From Candidatus Bathyarchaeota archaeon (GTDB lineage Archaea > Thermoproteota > Bathyarchaeia > 40CM-2-53-6 > RBG-13-38-9), in assembly GCA_026015185.1 (NCBI GenBank), contig JAOZGX010000070.1:2378-66377 (forward strand): a DNA stretch of 64,000 nucleotides, in the 5' to 3' direction. Within the stretch, counting starts at the first letter, position 1. Each line of letters opens with the position of its first letter. This document shows, in pieces, positions 1-50,954 of this stretch. Below the pieces are notes generated by a model. The model was not told the origin of the DNA and did no database searches. It saw only the letters and a program-made list of their open reading frames with translations. Made by a program: the position numbers and the translations under genes.

Positions 1-1127
1 ATGATCCCAGTAGCTTTCATTTTTCTGCCAATTCCTGCTAGTTGATCAAGGTCTCTAGATTCTACTGCATAAAGAAAGGCTCCTGCACAGAGGAAGAGAA
101 GGCTCTTCATAATTGCATGATTCATCACATGGAATATGCTGCCAGTTAATCCATAATATGTAGCTAATGATAGCCCAAATATTACATAACCCATCTGTGC
201 GATACTACTAAATGCCAATAATCTTTTGAGATCGGATTGTAGAAGTGCCATAATATTTCCGACTGTCATAGTCAATACTGCTAAAATCGCTAGGATAAAT
301 TGCCAATTATAAGTTCCAGGAATAAATATTATCATCAAAGTACGAATAAGAGCATATGCACCTACTTTAATAACAACACCAGAAAGCATAGCGCTTATTG
401 AGCTGGGAGCAGCTGGGTGAGCGTCAGGAAGCCATGAATGCATTGGAACAACAGAAGCTTTTATTCCAAAACCTATTATCATAAATGCCAATGCCAAAAT
501 TGACCAATAATTAATTGGCATTGTGGAGATTATTGAACCGAGATATGCGAAGTTTAGTGTTCCCGTCATTCCATAGAGCATCGACATTGCAAAGAGAACC
601 ATAACGCTACCGCTTGCACTCATTATTAAGTATTTGAATCCTGCTTCCACAGGCTCCCATTGACCTTTTCTAAAAGCAACTAGAACATAAGAAGTGATGC
701 ACATAATTTCCCAGAATATGAAGAATGTGAAAAAGTCTCCAGCAAAGACTACTCCTACCATACCAGCTACCATAAGCATCAGAAGAATATAGTATTCTGT
801 GAGTCCGCTATCTCTCTCCATATATCTTATTGAATAAATAGAAGTCAATAATCCTATGAAGACAAATAGTCCTGCCATAAAGATGCCTAAAGCATCTATT
901 TCAAAAATAGATGATATCGGCAAGAGACCATTAGCTACCGTAACTATAATTATTTTTCCAGATTTAATAGTCTCATAGAGTGTGTATATGAAATAGGACG
1001 CTATAATAAAAGCTAAAGTCGCCCAATAGTCGATTACCTTTCTAAAATTGATCTTAACACCGATCCAATAGATTATCGGAGCTAACAACGAGAAGATTAA
1101 AAGTGTATCAATTGGTCCTGTAAACAT
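1..1127 (-). CDS. nuoN: NADH-quinone oxidoreductase subunit N (antiporter-like), N-terminal part; continues past window start
   Basis: Minus-strand ATG at 1127 (MFTGPIDTLLIFSLLAPIIYWIG...). Polytopic membrane protein directly downstream of nuoL/nuoM in the operon. Open to the window edge. Confidence 0.55.
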   Translation of the reverse strand, partial: MFTGPIDTLLIFSLLAPIIYWIGVKINFRKVIDYWATLAFIIASYFIYTLYETIKSGKIIIVTVANGLLPISSIFEIDALGIFMAGLFVFIGLLTSIYSIRYMERDSGLTEYYILLMLMVAGMVGVVFAGDFFTFFIFWEIMCITSYVLVAFRKGQWEPVEAGFKYLIMSASGSVMVLFAMSMLYGMTGTLNFAYLGSIISTMPINYWSILALAFMIIGFGIKASVVPMHSWLPDAHPAAPSSISAMLSGVVIKVGAYALIRTLMIIFIPGTYNWQFILAILAVLTMTVGNIMALLQSDLKRLLAFSSIAQMGYVIFGLSLATYYGLTGSIFHVMNHAIMKSLLFLCAGAFLYAVESRDLDQLAGIGRKMKATGI

Positions 1128-6688: not shown

Positions 6689-7864
6689 TCATCGACCGTA
6701 GAATTTCTTTGCATGTTTTCTTAGTCGTTCCAAACTCCAAGTCCAAGTCTTGTCTGAATTAGCATCCACAAAGGTCATCCTATCAGTGCAACTCATACAG
6801 GGATCTATAGCCGCTAGAGTAATCGGAACATCAGCTACATATCCACCAATCAGCATCCTCGCCATAGAAGCCCAATTGCCCATTGTTGGAGCTCTGACTT
6901 TGTATCTTTCAGGTTTATCAGTGCCATTTGACTTGCAATAGTGTATATCTTCTCCTCTTGGAGCTTCAACTATGCTCACTCCTTCTCCTGGTGGAACTGA
7001 TCTAGGCGCTTTAATCCCTATTGGGCCACTAGGTAAGTGGCTTATTGCATAGTCAATGATCTTAATAGACTCTAATAATTCGTCTACTCTTACATATATT
7101 CTAGCAGCGACGTCACAAGAATCATAAGTTATAAGATCAAAAGGCATCTCATCATAAGCTGAATATGGATCGAACTTACGAACATCCTTTTTTACTCCAC
7201 TAGCTCTGGTCGTGGGTCCTACAGCGCATAACTCAACAGCATCCTTATATGGAAGTATACCTACACCAGCCGCTCTTTTTATTATCGTCTTTTCTGTAAG
7301 TCCAATTTTTTTGTAATATTCTGTCCTTTTTTTAAGAATTTTCATACCTTTTCTTAATTTTGATATAATCTCAGGAGTAAGATCTTTTCTGACTCCACCC
7401 AAAGTATTTGCTGCATGTAAAACACGATTACCTGTTATCTCTTCCATGAGATCTAGAGAGATCTCCCTATCGCGCCAACAATACATAAACAAAGTATCAA
7501 AACCTATTTCATGTGCTGCTACACCTAACCAAAGAAGATGGCTATGTATTCGTTCAAGTTCTGCAACTATGGTCCTTATGTAATGTGCTCTTGGAGGGAC
7601 TTCTATTTCCATCATTGATTCAATGTTATTGACATAACAAAGCTGATGGGCCATGGCGCATATGCCGCACACTCTTTCAATTAAATACATATTCTGAACG
7701 TATGTCCTGTTCTCAAATGCTTTCTCCCCACCGCGATGAACGTATCCTAAACGTATTTTTACATCAATAATTTCTTCGCCGTCAACTGTTAGCGTGAAGT
7801 TCTCTGGCTCTTTAAGCGCCGGATGTTGAGGACCAATTGGAACTGTATAGGTTGATTCAGACAT
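6689..7864 (-). CDS. nuoD: NADH-quinone oxidoreductase subunit D (49-kDa)
   Basis: 391 aa with NiFe-hydrogenase large-subunit-like features. Follows nuoC. Confidence 0.85.
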   Translation of the reverse strand: MSESTYTVPIGPQHPALKEPENFTLTVDGEEIIDVKIRLGYVHRGGEKAFENRTYVQNMYLIERVCGICAMAHQLCYVNNIESMMEIEVPPRAHYIRTIVAELERIHSHLLWLGVAAHEIGFDTLFMYCWRDREISLDLMEEITGNRVLHAANTLGGVRKDLTPEIISKLRKGMKILKKRTEYYKKIGLTEKTIIKRAAGVGILPYKDAVELCAVGPTTRASGVKKDVRKFDPYSAYDEMPFDLITYDSCDVAARIYVRVDELLESIKIIDYAISHLPSGPIGIKAPRSVPPGEGVSIVEAPRGEDIHYCKSNGTDKPERYKVRAPTMGNWASMARMLIGGYVADVPITLAAIDPCMSCTDRMTFVDANSDKTWTWSLERLRKHAKKFYGR

Positions 7865-16430: not shown

Positions 16431-17516
16431 TTAATCTGGATTTGGATATTGAGGGTCATTATCTTTTGTCCAGAGAGATTTTGAATTTGGGTTTTCAATA
16501 TCTCCATAGGGATCTGAATTAAATCCCCACTCTACAACAGAGGACCCTATATAAACACCAAAATGAAGGTGTGGTTGTCTCTTAACTAATGTTCCTGATC
16601 TGTCTGAGAACGCTATAAGCTGCCCTCTTTTTACTCTTTCTTTCGTTTTAACAAATAAACCATCATCTAAGTGGCAATAATAAGTTTTCATACCATTATC
16701 GTGGTAGATCATAATTCTATTTCCATGTTTTCTATGGTAATTATTCAATTTAGAAAATGAAGTATGCCAACCATCTTCGGTTAATATAGTTGTACCTGGA
16801 GCAGCAGCAACTATCAGTTGACCATTAGACATATAAAAGTCAGTTCCTGCATGGCCATCGTATGTTTGATTCCCGCCTTTCCAGTCTCGGATCTTCCCAT
16901 CCTTTATAAAAGGGGGACCTCCATGGTCATAGAAGGAGGTCTCTTGGAATTCCCAATTTGTACCATCTCTAATCGGTAATGTTAAGAAACCCTCCATCAG
17001 CCCCAATGATATTTCAGGCATGTTGGAATTGGCAATAAATTTGTAATCGGAATTCTCCCTGAATTCTTTGTTAGAGATCGATAGATACCTGTATTTTCTC
17101 AATGTATCTTTAGAAAATATAACTTCATACTCTATCCCGTCAATCAAATCATCTAATCTATAAATTCCATTACCATTTCCTCTAATCCTGTCAAGGATTC
17201 TATTACCATTATCATCAAAAACATCAAAACTAGCATCTTGGATAACTGGTTCATCATCTTGTTTTGCACCATCTCCATGATAGTCGTGGAATAACAGTAA
17301 TTCTAAGTCGATTTTTTCAAAAGTTTTGGTAGTTGTTGAGGTAACAATGGGTTCAGGTGTCAATGTTTGAATAGGTGAAGGAGAATGTTCAGGTTGAGTA
17401 GTTAAATCCTGAATTAATGGACTCCAATAATCCTTTGTTAAATAACCTACACTCGCAGCTGCTACTAATCCAGTTCCTGCATAAAGAAATTTTCTTCTAG
17501 AAATTTTGGCAGACAA
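16431..17516 (-). CDS. Tat-signal secreted M23-family (LytM-like) metallopeptidase
   Basis: N-terminal twin-arginine motif (SRRKFLYAGTGLVAAAS). The C-terminal region has the HAGTD...HLHFGVY (HxxxD/HxH) zinc-ligand motifs of the M23 family. Confidence 0.6.
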   Translation of the reverse strand: MSAKISRRKFLYAGTGLVAAASVGYLTKDYWSPLIQDLTTQPEHSPSPIQTLTPEPIVTSTTTKTFEKIDLELLLFHDYHGDGAKQDDEPVIQDASFDVFDDNGNRILDRIRGNGNGIYRLDDLIDGIEYEVIFSKDTLRKYRYLSISNKEFRENSDYKFIANSNMPEISLGLMEGFLTLPIRDGTNWEFQETSFYDHGGPPFIKDGKIRDWKGGNQTYDGHAGTDFYMSNGQLIVAAAPGTTILTEDGWHTSFSKLNNYHRKHGNRIMIYHDNGMKTYYCHLDDGLFVKTKERVKRGQLIAFSDRSGTLVKRQPHLHFGVYIGSSVVEWGFNSDPYGDIENPNSKSLWTKDNDPQYPNPD

Positions 17517-17574
17517 TAATAGTCAAAAATATAGTTTGAAGAATTAATGATAAAAAATTAACTTACGAAAATGA

Positions 17575-17600
17575 TGTAAGTAGTGGGATTCGAACCCATT
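17575..17600 (-). other. tRNA-like 3' fragment (T-arm GGGTTCGAATCCCA plus acceptor 3' strand) without a recognisable 5' half
   Basis: Minus strand reads aatGGGTTCGAATCCCActacttaca, a canonical T-loop. I could not fold a complete cloverleaf from the flanking sequence. Confidence 0.3.
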
Positions 17601-17922
17601 AGAAATATATTACTTCTCAAAAAGCAAGTAATGCTTGATCCAAATGTCTCGGCCAGTTGCTTGATAGGTATGGAGACGCCAACCCTTCTCTTGCCATTCG
17701 GCAATTGTTCTACCGATATTTCTATGGTTATCAATTTGCACACATATGTAATCTTTCACCTAAATTCACCTCATTTATGACATAGGTTTAGACCCATAAA
17801 TAAGGAAAATCTTTCATTCATATTTATTATTGATTTTGAGAACTCACTGCTCAAACTTGTGAAAGGAAGATGTATGATGATGTTTTGAGATTTTTCATAG
17901 AGAGATATGAGAAGAAATAATA

Positions 17923-17932
17923 GCGCGCGCGC
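17923..17932. repeat. Alternating (GC)5 tract, palindromic with flanks (tAGCGCGCGCGCTta)
   Basis: Read directly from the sequence. Extremely unlikely by chance at ~33% GC. Confidence 0.9.
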
Positions 17933-18278
17933 TTATCTTCATTAGTGATAATTAAGATTTTTTTCTATGTGTGTGTGGGTACCTTGGTGCGAGCACTTAC
18001 TTGAACTCGAATATTAAACCGGAATTTTATCATAATCTTGCCCATAGATAACCTCATGATTTTTCAGGACCCTAATATTATAGAATGTTAGAACTCTTGT
18101 CTAGAGTTCCTCAATTATTACCCTCTTTTCATTAGGCTTGAATCGAACTTTAACTTTGATAGTTTCTGTAATTTTGAATGGGAATGCAGTATCCTTTATC
18201 AGGCTCATAGGTAAGTATACAAAGTATTTGCCATCTTTCCTCTTGAAGATGCTTCCAACGCCTTGATTTACCAACTAT
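17933..18278. repeat. Direct repeat copy 1 (~346 bp, ~85-88% identical to 18712..19058)
   Basis: Aligned by eye. Both copies begin TTATCTTCATT(A/G)GTGATAATTAAG and end ...TACCAAC. Confidence 0.8.
18101..18274 (-). CDS. AbrB/MazE-like swapped-hairpin mini-protein (57 aa, TTG start), copy 1
   Basis: Core GVGSIFKRKDGKYFVYLPM.L.KDTAFPFKITETIKVKVRF.PN.KR is identical in both repeat copies, while the termini diverge. The AbrB-like call is by pattern only. Confidence 0.35.
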   Translation of the reverse strand: MVNQGVGSIFKRKDGKYFVYLPMSLIKDTAFPFKITETIKVKVRFKPNEKRVIIEEL

Positions 18279-18302
18279 AGTTTAACCACCATGCAAATAT
18301 TT

Positions 18303-18539
18303 CTAGATTCCTTCAGCAACGGTCATTGTTATAGTGCTTCTTACTTCACTTAGACTTCGAATATTACGAGTTACCATTTCCTTCAGTATGTCCATGTTTT
18401 CAGCTTCGACCTTAACTACTATATCATAAACACCGTAAACTATGTGTGCTTCTTTTACATTGCTGATGCTTCTTAATTGTTTGAGGAGATTTTTTTCTTC
18501 TCCCAATTCAGTACTTATGAATACAAAAGCCGTAACCAT
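18303..18539 (-). CDS. Stand-alone RAM (Lrp/AsnC C-terminal ligand-binding) domain protein
   Basis: 78 aa with the beta-alpha-beta-beta-alpha-beta pattern and the GVYDIVVKVEAENMD motif typical of AsnC RAM domains. Confidence 0.55.
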   Translation of the reverse strand: MVTAFVFISTELGEEKNLLKQLRSISNVKEAHIVYGVYDIVVKVEAENMDILKEMVTRNIRSLSEVRSTITMTVAEGI

Positions 18540-18711
18540 ATTTTTCCCATGGCAACAGTTATTTTTGGGGCGGAATCGGATTCGGTAGGAAGATTAGTAG
18601 TTCTTAGCTGGAGATTGAGAAAAACGCCTTAATACTAAAAGCGAAACTCAAGATTCCGCTTTCCCAATAACCCATTCATGTAGGTATACAGGTAAATGCA
18701 ATAGATAAGGA

Positions 18712-19058
18712 TTATCTTCATTGGTGATAATTAAGATTTTTCTGTGTGTTTGGGTAACTTCGTGCGGACATTGAAATTTAAATTCTAATATGGAACTGTG
18801 GGTTTTATCATAATCTTGTGCATGGATAGTCTCATGATTTTTTAGGACCCTAATATCATAGAATGTTAGAACTCTTGTCTAGATTCCCTCAAATACTATT
18901 CTTTTTTGATTAGGTCTGAATCGAACTTTAACTTTGATAGTTTCTGTAATTTTGAATGGAAATGCAGTATCTTTTACGAGTCTCATAGGTAAGTATACAA
19001 AGTATTTGCCATCTTTCCTCTTGAATATGCTTCCAACACCTTCGCTTACCAACATATG
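18712..19058. repeat. Direct repeat copy 2
   Basis: See copy 1. Confidence 0.8.
18879..19055 (-). CDS. AbrB/MazE-like swapped-hairpin mini-protein (58 aa, ATG start), copy 2
   Basis: MLVSEGVGSIFKRKDGKYFVYLPMRLVKDTAFPFKITETIKVKVRFRPNQKRIVFEGI. An AAGGGG sits 7 nt upstream of the ATG. Confidence 0.4.
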   Translation of the reverse strand: MLVSEGVGSIFKRKDGKYFVYLPMRLVKDTAFPFKITETIKVKVRFRPNQKRIVFEGI

Positions 19059-19063
19059 ACCCC

Positions 19064-19309
19064 TTATCTTAGGGGCTTTTTTTCTAAAACTTTGTTAATA
19101 TAAACAAGAAGTTCAAAACCTTCTGTGCCTTTTACATCAATTTGTTCTAGAACATTCCTATCATTGAATAAATATACGGAAGTATCATGGTCATCTTCAT
19201 CAGTCCAAGAATATTGGAGCGCCGTAATTCTATAACCTCTTTGCAGAAGGCGTTCCAACTTTTCTAATGACTTTTTCATTTGATGACCTTCAGAATATGG
19301 TACCAACAC
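19064..19309 (-). CDS. Hypothetical protein (81 aa) immediately upstream of AbrB-like copy 2
   Basis: ORF only; no recognisable motif. It lies 8 nt upstream of the mini-protein on the same strand. Confidence 0.3.
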   Translation of the reverse strand: MLVPYSEGHQMKKSLEKLERLLQRGYRITALQYSWTDEDDHDTSVYLFNDRNVLEQIDVKGTEGFELLVYINKVLEKKPLR

Positions 19310-19711
19310 ACAATAGATTCTTTCTATTAGCTCGCTGTATCAGAGCGTCCTTAGATAGATATTAAATACTAATTTCTCATTTAAAGTGTTATCGACCACT
19401 GACAGTTAGGTTGAGCGACGTACACAAATTGGTAAAACTATTGGGGATTATCTTTATTCTGCTAGTTGGATGGGAATTGGTTATTGTTTTAAAAGGTTCT
19501 GGTGACTGGAACTGTTAACTTCATCGCACATCAATCTTGGTGTTAACCATCGGCACATGCTATGGATGTTGCAAAAAATTAGTCCTGATATCTAACTATT
19601 TTATAAAACATATATCTAAACATCTAGAGAGCTATTATTTAGCGAAATCATTACATAGTAGATTTAACAAGATTTATTTTCACTATTTATTTTTAAGGAT
19701 GGAAATGCTGA

Positions 19712-46250: not shown

Positions 46251-47702
46251 ATGCCTACCAAGAATTTAACAAAGGTGAAAGATGAAGTCCTGAAAAGAGT
46301 CATTCCTGATTCTAAAGAAGTTCAAAAAGCACAGAAGCTTGCTGATGATATTAAAACTAAAATCGAAGAGAAAGCGAAGAAACACAAATTAGATTGTGAG
46401 GTCAGGATAGATGGCTCATTTGCAAAGGATACATGGTTGAAAGGCGAAGCAGATATAGACCTTTTTATGCGTGTTCCGAAAACGTTAACTGAAGAAGAAT
46501 TTAGAAAAGTATGCCTTAAGGTCGCTAAGGAATCTGTGAAAGAGTATGGCCACATAGAAAGGTATGCAGAACACCCATATATTGAAACAGTTATTGATAG
46601 TTATAAGGTGAACATTGTTCCATGCTATCTTACTGAGAAGAACAAATGGATTAGCGCTGTTGATAGAACCCCTTTCCATACTGATTACATGAAAGAGAAA
46701 CTGGGCAAGTTAAGAGATGAAGTTAGAATTCTAAAGAAGTTTATGAAAGGCATTAAAACATACGGAGCAGAGATTAAGGTTGGTGGATTTAGTGGCATAC
46801 TCTGCGAGACCTTGATTCTAAACTACGGTTCCTTTGAAGGTACTATAAAATCAGCTATCAATTGGAAAAAGAGAGAAATAATAGATATTGAAAATCATTA
46901 TGAAGTTACAAGAGCTGATATCTATGATCTTTTTGATGAGCCCTTTATAGTCATAGATCCTGTAGATAAATTCAGAAATGTAGCGGCAGCCGTAAGAGAA
47001 CAGAAATTATGGGATTTTGTATATGCATGCAGAGTTTTTCTTAGAAAACCTAGTTTAGATTTCTTTTATCCTCCTGAACCGAGATTATTATCAAAAAATG
47101 AAATGTGTAAGAAAATCACTGAGTATGGCTCGAACTATCTGGCATTGAAATTTGGTGAAGTGGATGCTGTGGTCGATGTTTTATGGAGTCAGCTATATAA
47201 GAGCGAGAGATGTCTGAAGAATCTATTTGAGAAAAATGATTTCAACGTATTTAGATCTGGTTCTTGGAGTAATGAAGCTGACTTAAATATCATAATCTTT
47301 GAATTGGAAGAAAACCCAATCTCATCTGTAAAGAAACATTTTGGGCCTCATGTTTATCGAAGGAAGAATGGGGATATTTTCATAAATAAACATCTAAAAG
47401 CAGATGATACAATTTTGGGCCCATGGATAGAGAACGATAGATTGGTAGTAGAGAAGAAGAGAAAATATTGTGATGCTGCTGATTTACTCAATGAGTCCTT
47501 AAGTAAAGGTGGAGAAAATATTGGCGTTGGCAAACTTGTTATCATAAGCTTACAGAATGGATTTGATATACTATTAGATAAGGATATTTTGAATCTATAT
47601 AATTTAAAAACCGAATTTTCAAAATTTTTAGTAGATTTTCTTAATGGCAAGCCAATATGGATGGAAGCGCGCGCGCGCTTAAGCAAATCATCAATGAAAT
47701 AA
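46251..47702 (+). CDS. cca: Archaeal class-I CCA-adding tRNA nucleotidyltransferase
   Basis: 'RIDGSFAKDTWLKGEADIDLF' nucleotidyltransferase motif. Classic thpR-cca pairing. Confidence 0.8.
   Translation: MPTKNLTKVKDEVLKRVIPDSKEVQKAQKLADDIKTKIEEKAKKHKLDCEVRIDGSFAKDTWLKGEADIDLFMRVPKTLTEEEFRKVCLKVAKESVKEYGHIERYAEHPYIETVIDSYKVNIVPCYLTEKNKWISAVDRTPFHTDYMKEKLGKLRDEVRILKKFMKGIKTYGAEIKVGGFSGILCETLILNYGSFEGTIKSAINWKKREIIDIENHYEVTRADIYDLFDEPFIVIDPVDKFRNVAAAVREQKLWDFVYACRVFLRKPSLDFFYPPEPRLLSKNEMCKKITEYGSNYLALKFGEVDAVVDVLWSQLYKSERCLKNLFEKNDFNVFRSGSWSNEADLNIIIFELEENPISSVKKHFGPHVYRRKNGDIFINKHLKADDTILGPWIENDRLVVEKKRKYCDAADLLNESLSKGGENIGVGKLVIISLQNGFDILLDKDILNLYNLKTEFSKFLVDFLNGKPIWMEARARLSKSSMK
47667..47678. 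repeat. Alternating (GC)6 tract (aaGCGCGCGCGCGCtt), inside the cca 3' end, encoding ...EARARL...
   Basis: Read directly from the sequence. Confidence 0.9.
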
Positions 47703-50274: not shown

Positions 50275-50954
50275 TTAACTCCAAAAGAATTGCACTAATT
50301 ACAATATTCGCTGCGTTAACTGCAATCCTGGACTCTATACCTGGAATTCCGCAGTTTACCTCAGGAGTTTGGTATAGTTGGGTATTCTTAATCGAGCCGA
50401 TCGTAGGATTCATATTAGGTCCATTTAACGGATTTCTCTCAGTCTTAATTGGTGTTCTGATTGGGCATTATATATATTTCAGAGACCCTTATGAGTTTAT
50501 ATTTACTTTAGGTGCTCCTATAGGAGCAATGATATCAGGAATGCTTTTTCAAGGCAACAAAAAATTTCCACTTTTACTCTTTACTTTCTTGTTGGTTGCT
50601 TATTTCTTAGCGCCAATTTCATTTAGCTTACGCGCGCGCGCGCTATGGGGAATCTGGGATGTGCTTCTTGCTTTTGTGTTGCTTTTGACGATTACATTGA
50701 TAAAAATCGAAAGAATACGACCGGTGTTTAGTGCTTTTATTGGCCTTGAATCAGATGTGTTGTTTAGAATTTTTCTATTAGTTCCATTGCAGACCTACAA
50801 AATATTCTATGGCTTCAATCTAGAAGCAATGAAGCTAATTTGGACTGCATCGGCTTTTATGACTCCGATTCAAGTAGGCTTATCCTTATTTTTTACAATT
50901 TTAGCGTTCCCACTGTTAAAGAAGGCTACTAGAAGATTTAATCTGCAACTATAA
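50271..50954 (+). CDS. Hypothetical polytopic membrane protein (possibly a transporter S-component-like)
   Basis: 6 predicted TM helices. Translationally coupled to the ATP-grasp gene. Confidence 0.4.
   Translation: MINSKRIALITIFAALTAILDSIPGIPQFTSGVWYSWVFLIEPIVGFILGPFNGFLSVLIGVLIGHYIYFRDPYEFIFTLGAPIGAMISGMLFQGNKKFPLLLFTFLLVAYFLAPISFSLRARALWGIWDVLLAFVLLLTITLIKIERIRPVFSAFIGLESDVLFRIFLLVPLQTYKIFYGFNLEAMKLIWTASAFMTPIQVGLSLFFTILAFPLLKKATRRFNLQL
50631..50643. repeat. Alternating C(GC)6 tract inside the membrane-protein gene, encoding ...SLRARAL...
   Basis: Read directly from the sequence. Confidence 0.9.

Follow-up and report, generated by a model that had tools for sequence, protein, structure and literature searches.

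Almost nothing is known about the regulators of Bathyarchaeia, an abundant group without cultured members. The stretch of DNA analysed here (the window, 64 kb) comes from a metagenome-assembled genome (MAG) of Candidatus Bathyarchaeota. It carries two direct repeats, 17933-18278 and 18712-19058, each of which encodes a protein of about 57 residues on the minus strand. These two genes, here called mini-gene copy 1 and mini-gene copy 2, have different partners on the same strand. Copy 1 follows a gene for a stand-alone RAM domain and copy 2 follows an orphan open reading frame (ORF). The genes, the DNA flanking them and the smaller features nearby are collected in Table 1.

Table 1. Features in and around the repeated module (window coordinates).
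Feature	Positions	Strand	Details
Mini-gene copy 1	18101..18274	-	57 residues, TTG start; NWF08_06260; predicted AbrB-like; RAM-linked
Mini-gene copy 2	18879..19055	-	58 residues, ATG start; NWF08_06270; predicted AbrB-like; paralogue of copy 1
Stand-alone RAM-domain gene	18303..18539	-	78 residues; 28 nt upstream of copy 1, same strand
Conserved region upstream of RAM gene	18540..18742	-	~200 nt; the initial 30 nt form block D of repeat copy 2
Orphan ORF	19064..19309	-	81 residues from GTG; annotated with 71 residues, NWF08_06275; stop 8 nt before the ATG of copy 2
Block A, copy 1 flank	18025..18100	-	76 nt after stop; best-conserved non-coding stretch
Block A, copy 2 flank	18803..18878	-	76 nt after stop
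Block B			short; poorly conserved; B+C about 72% identical, copy 1 vs copy 2
Block C			about 45 nt; dispersed repeat (intact: copy 1; decayed: copy 2)
Block D, distal end of repeat copy 1	17933..17962	-	30 nt; 97% identical to 18712-18741
C element, intact	17964..18012	-	copy 1 flank; core GCACCAAGGTACCCACACAC at 17971-17990
C element, decayed	18743..18789	-	copy 2 flank; core GCACGAAGTTACCCAAACAC at 18746-18765; derived changes common to the L218 flank
(GC)n tract	17922..17933		outer edge of repeat copy 1
T-arm-like sequence	17576-17597	-	GGGTTCGAATCCCACTACTTAC; 0 matches expected in shuffles; not a tRNA gene
49-residue gene	17610..17759	-	MKDYICVQIDNHRNIGRTIAEWQEKGWRLHTYQATGRDIWIKHYLLFEK; downstream of the module, outside the repeat; apparently unannotated in the source record

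A repeat search found the two copies to be 84-89% identical. The similarity falls into a long segment (18025-18275 against 18803-19053, 251 nt, 89%) and a short one (17933-17976 against 18712-18755, 44 nt, 86%), both at a spacing of 778-779 nt, and a MAFFT alignment of the two minus-strand copies spans ~346 nt. In this alignment copy 1 reads TAG-TTG at the place where copy 2 reads ATG-TTG. The encoded proteins are 79% identical (88.5% for the ORF DNA) and share the core GVGSIFKRKDGKYFVYLPM.L.KDTAFPFKITETIKVKVRF, residues G6-F46, within which only the two dotted positions differ. Copy 2 retains all residues that are invariant in the alignment of the subfamily, and it has an ATG and a GGGG(T) ribosome-binding motif of its own. 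Apart from these two copies, no member of the mini-gene family was found in the window.

The module had been pointed out in an earlier reading of the bare nucleotide sequence (the original prediction), and its description of the locus holds with regard to the direct repeats, the minus-strand ORF of about 57 codons in each of them (starting with ATG in one copy, with TAG followed by TTG in the other), the nearly identical protein core with differing termini, and the different partners. It erred in expecting ORF callers to miss the mini-ORFs, both of which are annotated in the public record as hypothetical proteins. It also overlooked that the pair of RAM gene and mini-gene is a cassette conserved in several populations, that the duplication is old and that elements of the flank occur elsewhere too. 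The sole match of the orphan ORF among 5.8 billion protein clusters is itself; searches of Pfam and NCBIfam gave no match to it and PADLOC gave no meaningful one.

Two paralogous mini-genes under purifying selection

We estimated the ratio of nonsynonymous to synonymous divergence (dN/dS) by the Nei-Gojobori method on seven close sequences. Across this subfamily mean dN/dS is 0.18 (mean dS 0.47, mean dN 0.083), the core having a ratio of 0.11 and the termini one of 0.37. For copy 1 against copy 2, dS is 0.31 and dN is 0.09, corresponding to a dN/dS of 0.28. Since the ratio is low both in the subfamily and between the copies, we conclude that the mini-genes are real paralogues and that both have long been kept as protein-coding genes under purifying selection. 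The selection on a small protein that had been suspected from the pattern of core and termini is thereby borne out.

The copies are as distant from each other as they are from orthologues in other populations. With respect to the orthologue at L218 (L-numbers denote related loci used for comparison, P-numbers protein sequence clusters), ORF DNA identity is 91.4% for copy 2 and 90.2% for copy 1. A dS of 0.31 between the copies argues for an old duplication and against an assembly artefact. The duplication is old, or copy 2 was acquired from a related lineage, and recombination made the flank a mosaic; duplication in itself is ordinary biology.

The repeat starts exactly at the start codon of the ORF, and the sequence upstream of it is unrelated between the copies and the orthologues. 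It ends after 167 nt of DNA downstream of the ORF, and 433 nt separate the two repeat copies. Copy 2 probably arose by duplication of ~346 bp, from the start codon through these 167 nt, and now lies 433 bp upstream of copy 1, behind the orphan ORF and with its own ATG and ribosome-binding site. The flank was carried along with the duplicated gene, and is itself partly constrained.

Other schemes for the arrangement were also considered. A simple tandem duplication fails, as nothing upstream of copy 2 corresponds to the 433 nt that separate the repeats. A period of 779 nt places the orphan ORF, the RAM gene and the 49-residue ORF at equivalent positions, but the spacers of 172 and 173 nt are non-homologous and the three proteins are unrelated, and this periodicity was rejected. 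An insertion was also considered on grounds of synteny, the 49-residue gene adjoining a zinc alcohol dehydrogenase (zinc-ADH) gene here and in relatives, but the dehydrogenases are 28% identical and are paralogues. None of the flanking genes of the relatives maps into the window. The locus illustrates the copying and reshuffling of small genes, together with the DNA that flanks them, in Bathyarchaeia genomes.

The RAM cassette and the predicted fold of the mini-protein

The product of the RAM gene matches PF01037 with an E-value of 1.2e-12 and 48 bits against a cut-off of 25, residues 6-75 of 78 covering positions 1-71 of the 73 in the model. It has no helix-turn-helix and aligns solely to the C-terminal effector domain of AsnC, LysM and Lrp. 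The gene is a stand-alone RAM-domain gene without a DNA-binding part, as originally proposed. At the DNA level it is 85-91% identical to the RAM genes of L001, L007, L008 and L218.

The pairing of the RAM gene with a mini-gene is conserved. A RAM gene followed 28-29 nt later by a mini-gene was found at L001-L004 (P0007), L007 (P0002), L008 (P0005), L218 (P0003) and L219 (P0009), and the pair is kept in six sequence clusters. The surroundings of this cassette differ each time and include MEDS and asparagine synthase genes, a zinc ribbon with DUF998, TFIIB paralogues and others. Conservation extends into the region upstream of the RAM gene, which aligns with L001 2525-2732, L007 1-201, L008 2262-2478 and L218 about 980-1180 and is conserved about as well as the genes themselves. 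It could hold a promoter or operator; RNAalifold gave no covariation support for a structure in it. The cassette thus consists of this ~200-nt region, the RAM gene and the mini-gene, and copy 1 is the ancestral copy because the unit of RAM gene and mini-gene recurs in other populations.

Variations on the arrangement were seen at two of these loci. At L008 a second copy of the first ~110 nt of the upstream region (7030-7245, minus strand) precedes a TFIIB gene. At L218 a third, more divergent family member (LVSKGRGSILKNKEGKYFIYLPKYFVEDTNFPF..., 741-914, minus strand) lies directly upstream of the RAM gene and its mini-gene in divergent orientation, so the presence of two mini-genes around one RAM gene is not unique to the window.

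The mini-proteins belong to a family of 11 close clusters (word-indexed search) and 168 clusters at 50% identity (exhaustive profile search, E <= 0.001), nearly all of 45-100 residues, with the signature RKDGKY..YLP...D[ST].FPF. Searching species-representative genomes with the pattern RKDGKY[FL][VIL]Y yielded 293 confirmed places. Eighty of these loci are listed (L009-L088), and all counts of context in the wider family refer to them. Nearly all come from Bathyarchaeia or Bathyarchaeota MAGs, with several copies in some genomes. Some members show other architectures, namely tandem double domains, C-terminal zinc-ribbon fusions and one case in which the domain is C-terminal in a 281-residue protein (P0014, P0096, P0142, P0123, P0151, P0067), which could help to infer the function of the family.

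Structure prediction with AlphaFold2 (AF2) from the 11 close sequences alone was poor, with a predicted local distance difference test (pLDDT) score of 66. From an alignment of 68 sequences of the wider family it gave a confident model (pLDDT 92.6), in which residues 8-11, 17-20, 41-45 and 52-56 form strands and residues 23-26 a short helix. The predicted domain of about 50 residues runs in the order strand-strand-helix-strand-strand, which is also that of AbrB-type domains. In a Foldseek search of the PDB, the sole full-length matches at a template-modelling (TM) score of 0.51-0.57 and a root-mean-square deviation (rmsd) of 2.5-2.8 A were AbrB-type VapB antitoxins; 5itj, deposited as 'histone-like protein', matched at TM 0.51 and rmsd 3.4 A, and the better named matches in a viral structure library include 'SpoVT / AbrB like domain'. 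Among the 68 family members, seven match PF04014 (best E-value 1.8e-4, model positions 5-46 of 48) and three match SymE, which is AbrB-like too. Finally, hhalign compared the family with a hand-assembled profile of seven N-domains (AbrB, Abh, SpoVT, MazE, ChpS, Kis and VapB) and returned P 1.8e-4 and a probability of 48% over 46 columns, pairing V-Y-L-P of the family with V-V-I-P of AbrB. Matches of the mini-protein to CATSPERD and galectin were also obtained and were discarded as chance.

These data suggest that the mini-protein likely, though not provenly, has the swapped-hairpin fold of AbrB, SpoVT and MazE. The AbrB/MazE-like fold named in the original prediction is the best structural reading, but it is not established. 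We put at about 60% the probability that copies 1 and 2 are paralogues in a Bathyarchaeia-specific family of ~57-residue proteins with an AbrB fold that act as dimeric, nucleic-acid-binding regulators, copy 1 standing in a RAM cassette and copy 2 being an old duplicate. If so, the RAM gene and the mini-gene would be co-expressed, the RAM protein would sense an amino acid or another metabolite, the AbrB-like mini-protein would provide DNA binding, and the two would act together as a split version of a one-chain sensor-regulator. The module is probably a small regulatory gene pair with a paralogue, and neither a toxin-antitoxin system nor a scar of integration into a tRNA gene.

Several observations weigh against this proposal. 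The mini-proteins of the window themselves have no match in Pfam (E <= 1), NCBIfam, PADLOC or the sequences of the PDB. The best PF04014 score in the family, 21.9 bits, stays below the gathering cut-off of 24.7 bits, no Foldseek match has a significant E-value (the best is about 2, which is usual for a query of 57 residues), the hhalign profile was assembled by hand from seven sequences, and the AF2 model is that of a monomer. A RAM gene adjoins the family member at 0 of the 80 loci of the wider family, which makes the RAM pairing specific to the subfamily. The most common context in the wider family, between a radical SAM gene and a translin-family gene (described below), is as compatible with a role connected to RNA as with one connected to DNA.

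Comparison with known systems shows where the module would stand. Like the AbrB/SpoVT/MazE proteins (PF04014), the mini-protein is a domain of about 50 residues with a hydrophobic x-Y/I-L/I-P motif at the end of strand 2, aligned with V-V-I-P of AbrB; its best structural matches are VapB N-domains, and distant family members match PF04014 and SymE slightly below threshold. Unlike them, the window proteins lie below every Pfam threshold, the family has its own signature and a longer stretch from the helix to strand 3, the mini-protein lacks a C-terminal oligomerisation or toxin-binding domain, and the loci are nearly all from Bathyarchaeia. Bacillus SpoVT combines an AbrB-type DNA-binding module with a small-molecule sensor module. 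The likeness is one of analogy only, as SpoVT is one polypeptide with a GAF sensor whereas here there would be two gene products with a RAM domain as the sensor, and we claim no homology between the sensors.

The RAM protein in turn resembles DM1 of P. horikoshii and STS042 of S. tokodaii in having ~78 residues and a RAM domain alone, without helix-turn-helix. It differs in that its conserved neighbour is a predicted AbrB-like mini-protein and not a full-length Lrp regulator. DM1 and comparable stand-alone RAM proteins bind amino acids and can hetero-oligomerise with full-length Lrp regulators, and their physiological role has been called unclear (PMC2995911). A literature search found no paper naming AbrB together with a RAM domain in archaea. 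Should our proposal be right, it would suggest a role for some stand-alone RAM proteins, in that ligand sensing is lent to a separate minimal DNA binder. It would likewise give a name and a testable role to a ~57-residue family that lies outside the curated libraries and is present in many Bathyarchaeia genomes.

The mosaic flank and alternative functions

The DNA behind the stop codon of each mini-gene is a mosaic of four blocks, A to D (Table 1). Block A is identical at 69 of 76 positions between the copies (91%), and at 46 of the first 48. At the far end, the last ~32 nt of the flank are about 91-94% identical. Block D duplicates the start of the region upstream of the RAM gene; at copy 2 it simply is the start of that region, and past block D the similarity halts at the (GC)n tract 17922-17933. 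At L218, the RAM-linked mini-gene is followed by block A (88-90% identical), block B, a decayed block C and a partial block D. Over all blocks the flank of copy 2 is 85.6% identical to that of L218 and 84.2% identical to that of copy 1, and over blocks B and C the values are 86.4% for L218 and 71.9% for copy 1. Elsewhere little of the flank is found: only the first ~20 nt of block A are kept at L001 and L219, and at most 12 nt at L007 and L008.

The 46/48 identity directly after the stop and the mosaic nature of the flank had both been noted in the original prediction, and both are confirmed. The first 48-76 nt diverge less than synonymous sites do: block A has seven differences in 76 positions (two in the first 48), whereas the adjoining ORF has nine over 35 synonymous sites. 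The conservation of block A exceeds neutral expectation, with a binomial P of about 1e-4 for a stretch that was chosen after it had been seen. Inspection by eye revealed in block A (18025-18057 and 18803-18835, minus strand; L218 about 1663-1719) a TATA-like CTATAATA lying ~20 nt before a conserved ATG. At this ATG a tiny ORF begins, M(R/Q)LSM.KIMIK. Its first 11 codons are common to the three copies, three of the changes in them being synonymous, and its ends differ. Block A may act as a promoter, carry a leaderless micro-ORF or form a 3'-end element.

These features raise the question of whether the functional core of the repeat is non-coding, that is, whether block A, with or without C and D, is a promoter, a small RNA or an element of the 3' untranslated region. 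We consider this unlikely, with a minor but real chance of being right. It would account for the low divergence of block A relative to synonymous sites, for its persistence at L218 and for the TATA-like sequence ahead of the tiny ORF in three copies, and the consensus that RNAalifold proposes for three sequences contains a long-range stem of 9 bp and a hairpin of 7 bp, both of which persist despite one-sided changes. No true compensatory pair was found by RNAalifold, however, and no match in Rfam. Single sequences fold no more stably than shuffled ones (z 0.07 and -0.07), and the copies fold differently. A structured RNA was not supported for the 3' flank, nor for the region that precedes the RAM gene, with fold z-scores of about 0 and no covariation. 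Moreover, past codon 11 the tiny ORF diverges between the copies and has different ends, and the flank beyond ~20 nt is absent from L001, L007, L008 and L219. A function of block A would add to a protein function and not replace it, the mini-ORFs being clearly under selection.

The wider family points to a second alternative. At 43-45 of the 80 listed loci (for example L057 1829-2908 and L077 3293-4030) the family member lies between a radical SAM gene (PF08608 and PF04055) and a translin-family gene (PF01997). The radical SAM gene being of the wyosine-forming type, the mini-protein might be an adaptor that binds RNA or protein, for instance in tRNA or RNA metabolism, and its linkage to RAM might be incidental. 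The zinc-ribbon fusions and tandem double domains of some family members are in line with such a role. On the other hand, the pairing of RAM gene and mini-gene is kept in six clusters across changing contexts, the fold matches of the mini-protein are DNA-binding domains, and RAM domains are best known from the Lrp/AsnC transcription regulators (PMC2995911). We regard the adaptor function as quite unlikely.

A more far-reaching version of the regulator proposal can be formulated, and we offer it as a long shot. The module might represent an undescribed two-component transcription regulator of Bathyarchaeia in which a free RAM sensor docks on a minimal binder with AbrB fold. It would travel as a mobile cassette with its own ~200-nt control region, heterodimers between paralogues (copy 2 here, the third member at L218) would shift the choice of targets, and the C elements and the (GC)n tracts at breaks of homology, described below, would serve as sites of recombination at which such small-gene cassettes are shuffled.

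Repeat elements, mobility and the neighbourhood

Block C is a dispersed repeat, which we call the C element. In the window it occurs only as the two copies inside the module. Its core, GCACCAAGGTAYCCACAC or (C)GCACCAAGGTAYCCACACAC, is hyperconserved, dispersed and intergenic, and the exact core is present in L001, L002, L008 and L013. Sites include L002 853-870 and 2460-2477, L008 751-768, L013 2791-2808 and 3186-3203, L185 and L090-L209. At L002 the two elements form an inverted pair around an asparagine-synthase-like gene, and at L013/L185 the element occurs in three successive intergenic regions around another member of the mini-protein family. Among the matches listed, the element is found in more than 120 metagenome contigs; counts of this kind cover the listed matches from metagenomes and a viral collection and are lower bounds. 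At 130 such sites the core continues on its 3' side with AC in 119 and with ACAC in 90, and these matches are therefore not due to chance. Most copies of the C element are intergenic; they are found in both orientations and closer to the 3' ends of genes, and their number reaches 7 per 9.5 kb.

The left flanks of the listed sites fall into classes, ...ACGGTTCAAATTnnGAyGCyC at 62, (GT)nGC at 29 and (CGT)n at 9. The first class reads GGTTCAAAT...GCyCGCACCA and then AGGTACCCACACAC. From the GG of GGTTCAAAT to CCA it measures 25 nt, which equals the G52 to A76 span in tRNAs, and the 3' end of the tRNA-Pro of L002 agrees with it at 20 of these 25 positions. The element looks as if it were derived from the 3' end of a tRNA, and it could be a repeat of the repetitive extragenic palindrome (REP) type, an attachment (att)-like site or a processing site. 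It has no match in Rfam, and a literature search found no paper containing the core sequence. Like REP/BIME and tRNA-derived repeats, the C element is short (22-45 nt), highly conserved, mostly intergenic, often near gene 3' ends and sometimes arranged in tandem or inverted pairs, with about one copy per 1.3 kb in some contigs. Unlike REP/BIME, it has a core that does not form a hairpin, since changes on the 5' side go uncompensated, and one class has the G52 to A76 spacing of a tRNA 3' end. No transposase was found in association with it, no search aimed at one having been made.

A further kind of repeat is the (GC)n tract (AGCGCGCGCGCT-like), of which the window has three (17922-17933, 47665-47681 and 50632-50646). 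The DNA of the window has a GC content of 35%, and eight overlapping matches to GCGCGCGC were found where 0.06 are expected in shuffles. Two (GC)n tracts lie exactly at breaks of homology, one where block D of the window ends and one where homology to block A ends in L008, and the tracts may be hotspots or scars of recombination. Outside the window, tracts were seen at L008 about 2921-2934 and at L001 3594-3609, and downstream of tRNAs in L114 and L216.

Downstream of the module lies a T-arm-like sequence (Table 1), of which 16 nt (TGGGTTCGAATCCCAC) are common to the T arm of a Bathyarchaeia tRNA-Leu at L053. Its acceptor part, TACTTACA, is AT-rich and unlike the GC-rich 3' ends of 20 Bathyarchaeia tRNAs from related loci. 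ARAGORN found no tRNA gene in the 64 kb, and Rfam gave no match at gathering thresholds in the window and only noise at E <= 10 on 17400-19500. A decayed tRNA gene behind the 49-residue gene was considered and rejected, as relatives of that gene have neither a tRNA nor a T arm downstream. Of the tRNA-like 3' fragment described originally, only the T arm resembles a tRNA, the acceptor part being unlike those of real tRNAs; the fragment is probably tRNA-derived debris, and it could not be tied to the module.

The idea that the module is a remnant of integration into a tRNA gene is not supported, as the 64 kb contain no tRNA gene, no integrase lies within about 8 kb and only the T arm of the fragment is tRNA-like. 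A broader form of it, in which the module, or all the small genes over 1.9 kb, integrated site-specifically and the T-arm fragment and the C element are old attachment sites (the source tRNA would end ...CCCACTACTTACA), appears very improbable to us. A 13-mer of the T arm that is not expected by chance, the resemblance of the C element to the last 25 nt of a tRNA including CCA, the different context of the RAM cassette in every population and the (GC)n tracts at two breakpoints would all be explained. Yet no integrase, transposase or tRNA gene is present in the neighbourhood (none of the first two among the ten flanking genes), the acceptor part mismatches real tRNAs, GC content is flat across the region, and C elements are general intergenic repeats in either orientation that do not form pairs around the cassette in L001 and L008.

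The suggestion of a toxin-antitoxin-like module fared no better. As a type II system, with the mini-protein as antitoxin and the RAM protein or the orphan as toxin, it would be consistent with AbrB-fold proteins being common antitoxins, with VapB antitoxins being the best structural matches and with the small size, tight spacing and duplication of the genes. Neither partner has the make-up of a toxin: RAM is a ligand-binding module, the orphan ORF has no homologue whatever, and for the five small proteins of the region PADLOC, Pfam and NCBIfam gave no toxin or defence match. The mini-protein is a bare domain that ends 1-2 residues past its last predicted strand and has no toxin-binding tail, and most family members stand among housekeeping genes, between a Taw1-like gene and a translin gene. 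We find a toxin-antitoxin function scarcely credible.

An assembly artefact, raised as a concern in the original prediction and conceivable in a MAG, can practically be dismissed, as the copies differ at 11.5% of ORF and ~16% of flank positions, contain indels, have different neighbours and each have their own closest relative elsewhere.

The genes around the module are ordinary: PdxA, a sugar-kinase-like gene, a methyltransferase, the zinc-ADH, DUF2148, PadR, a signal peptidase, ThiF and an Lhr helicase. A 361-residue ORF between the methyltransferase gene and the module encodes an M23 peptidase. The 49-residue ORF has no library match, and it has 28 homologous clusters at 55-84% identity whose members occur in unrelated contexts. 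None of these clusters is identical to it at 100%, and for this reason the ORF is apparently unannotated; from its sequence relatives it looks like a conserved small gene that was missed in the source annotation.

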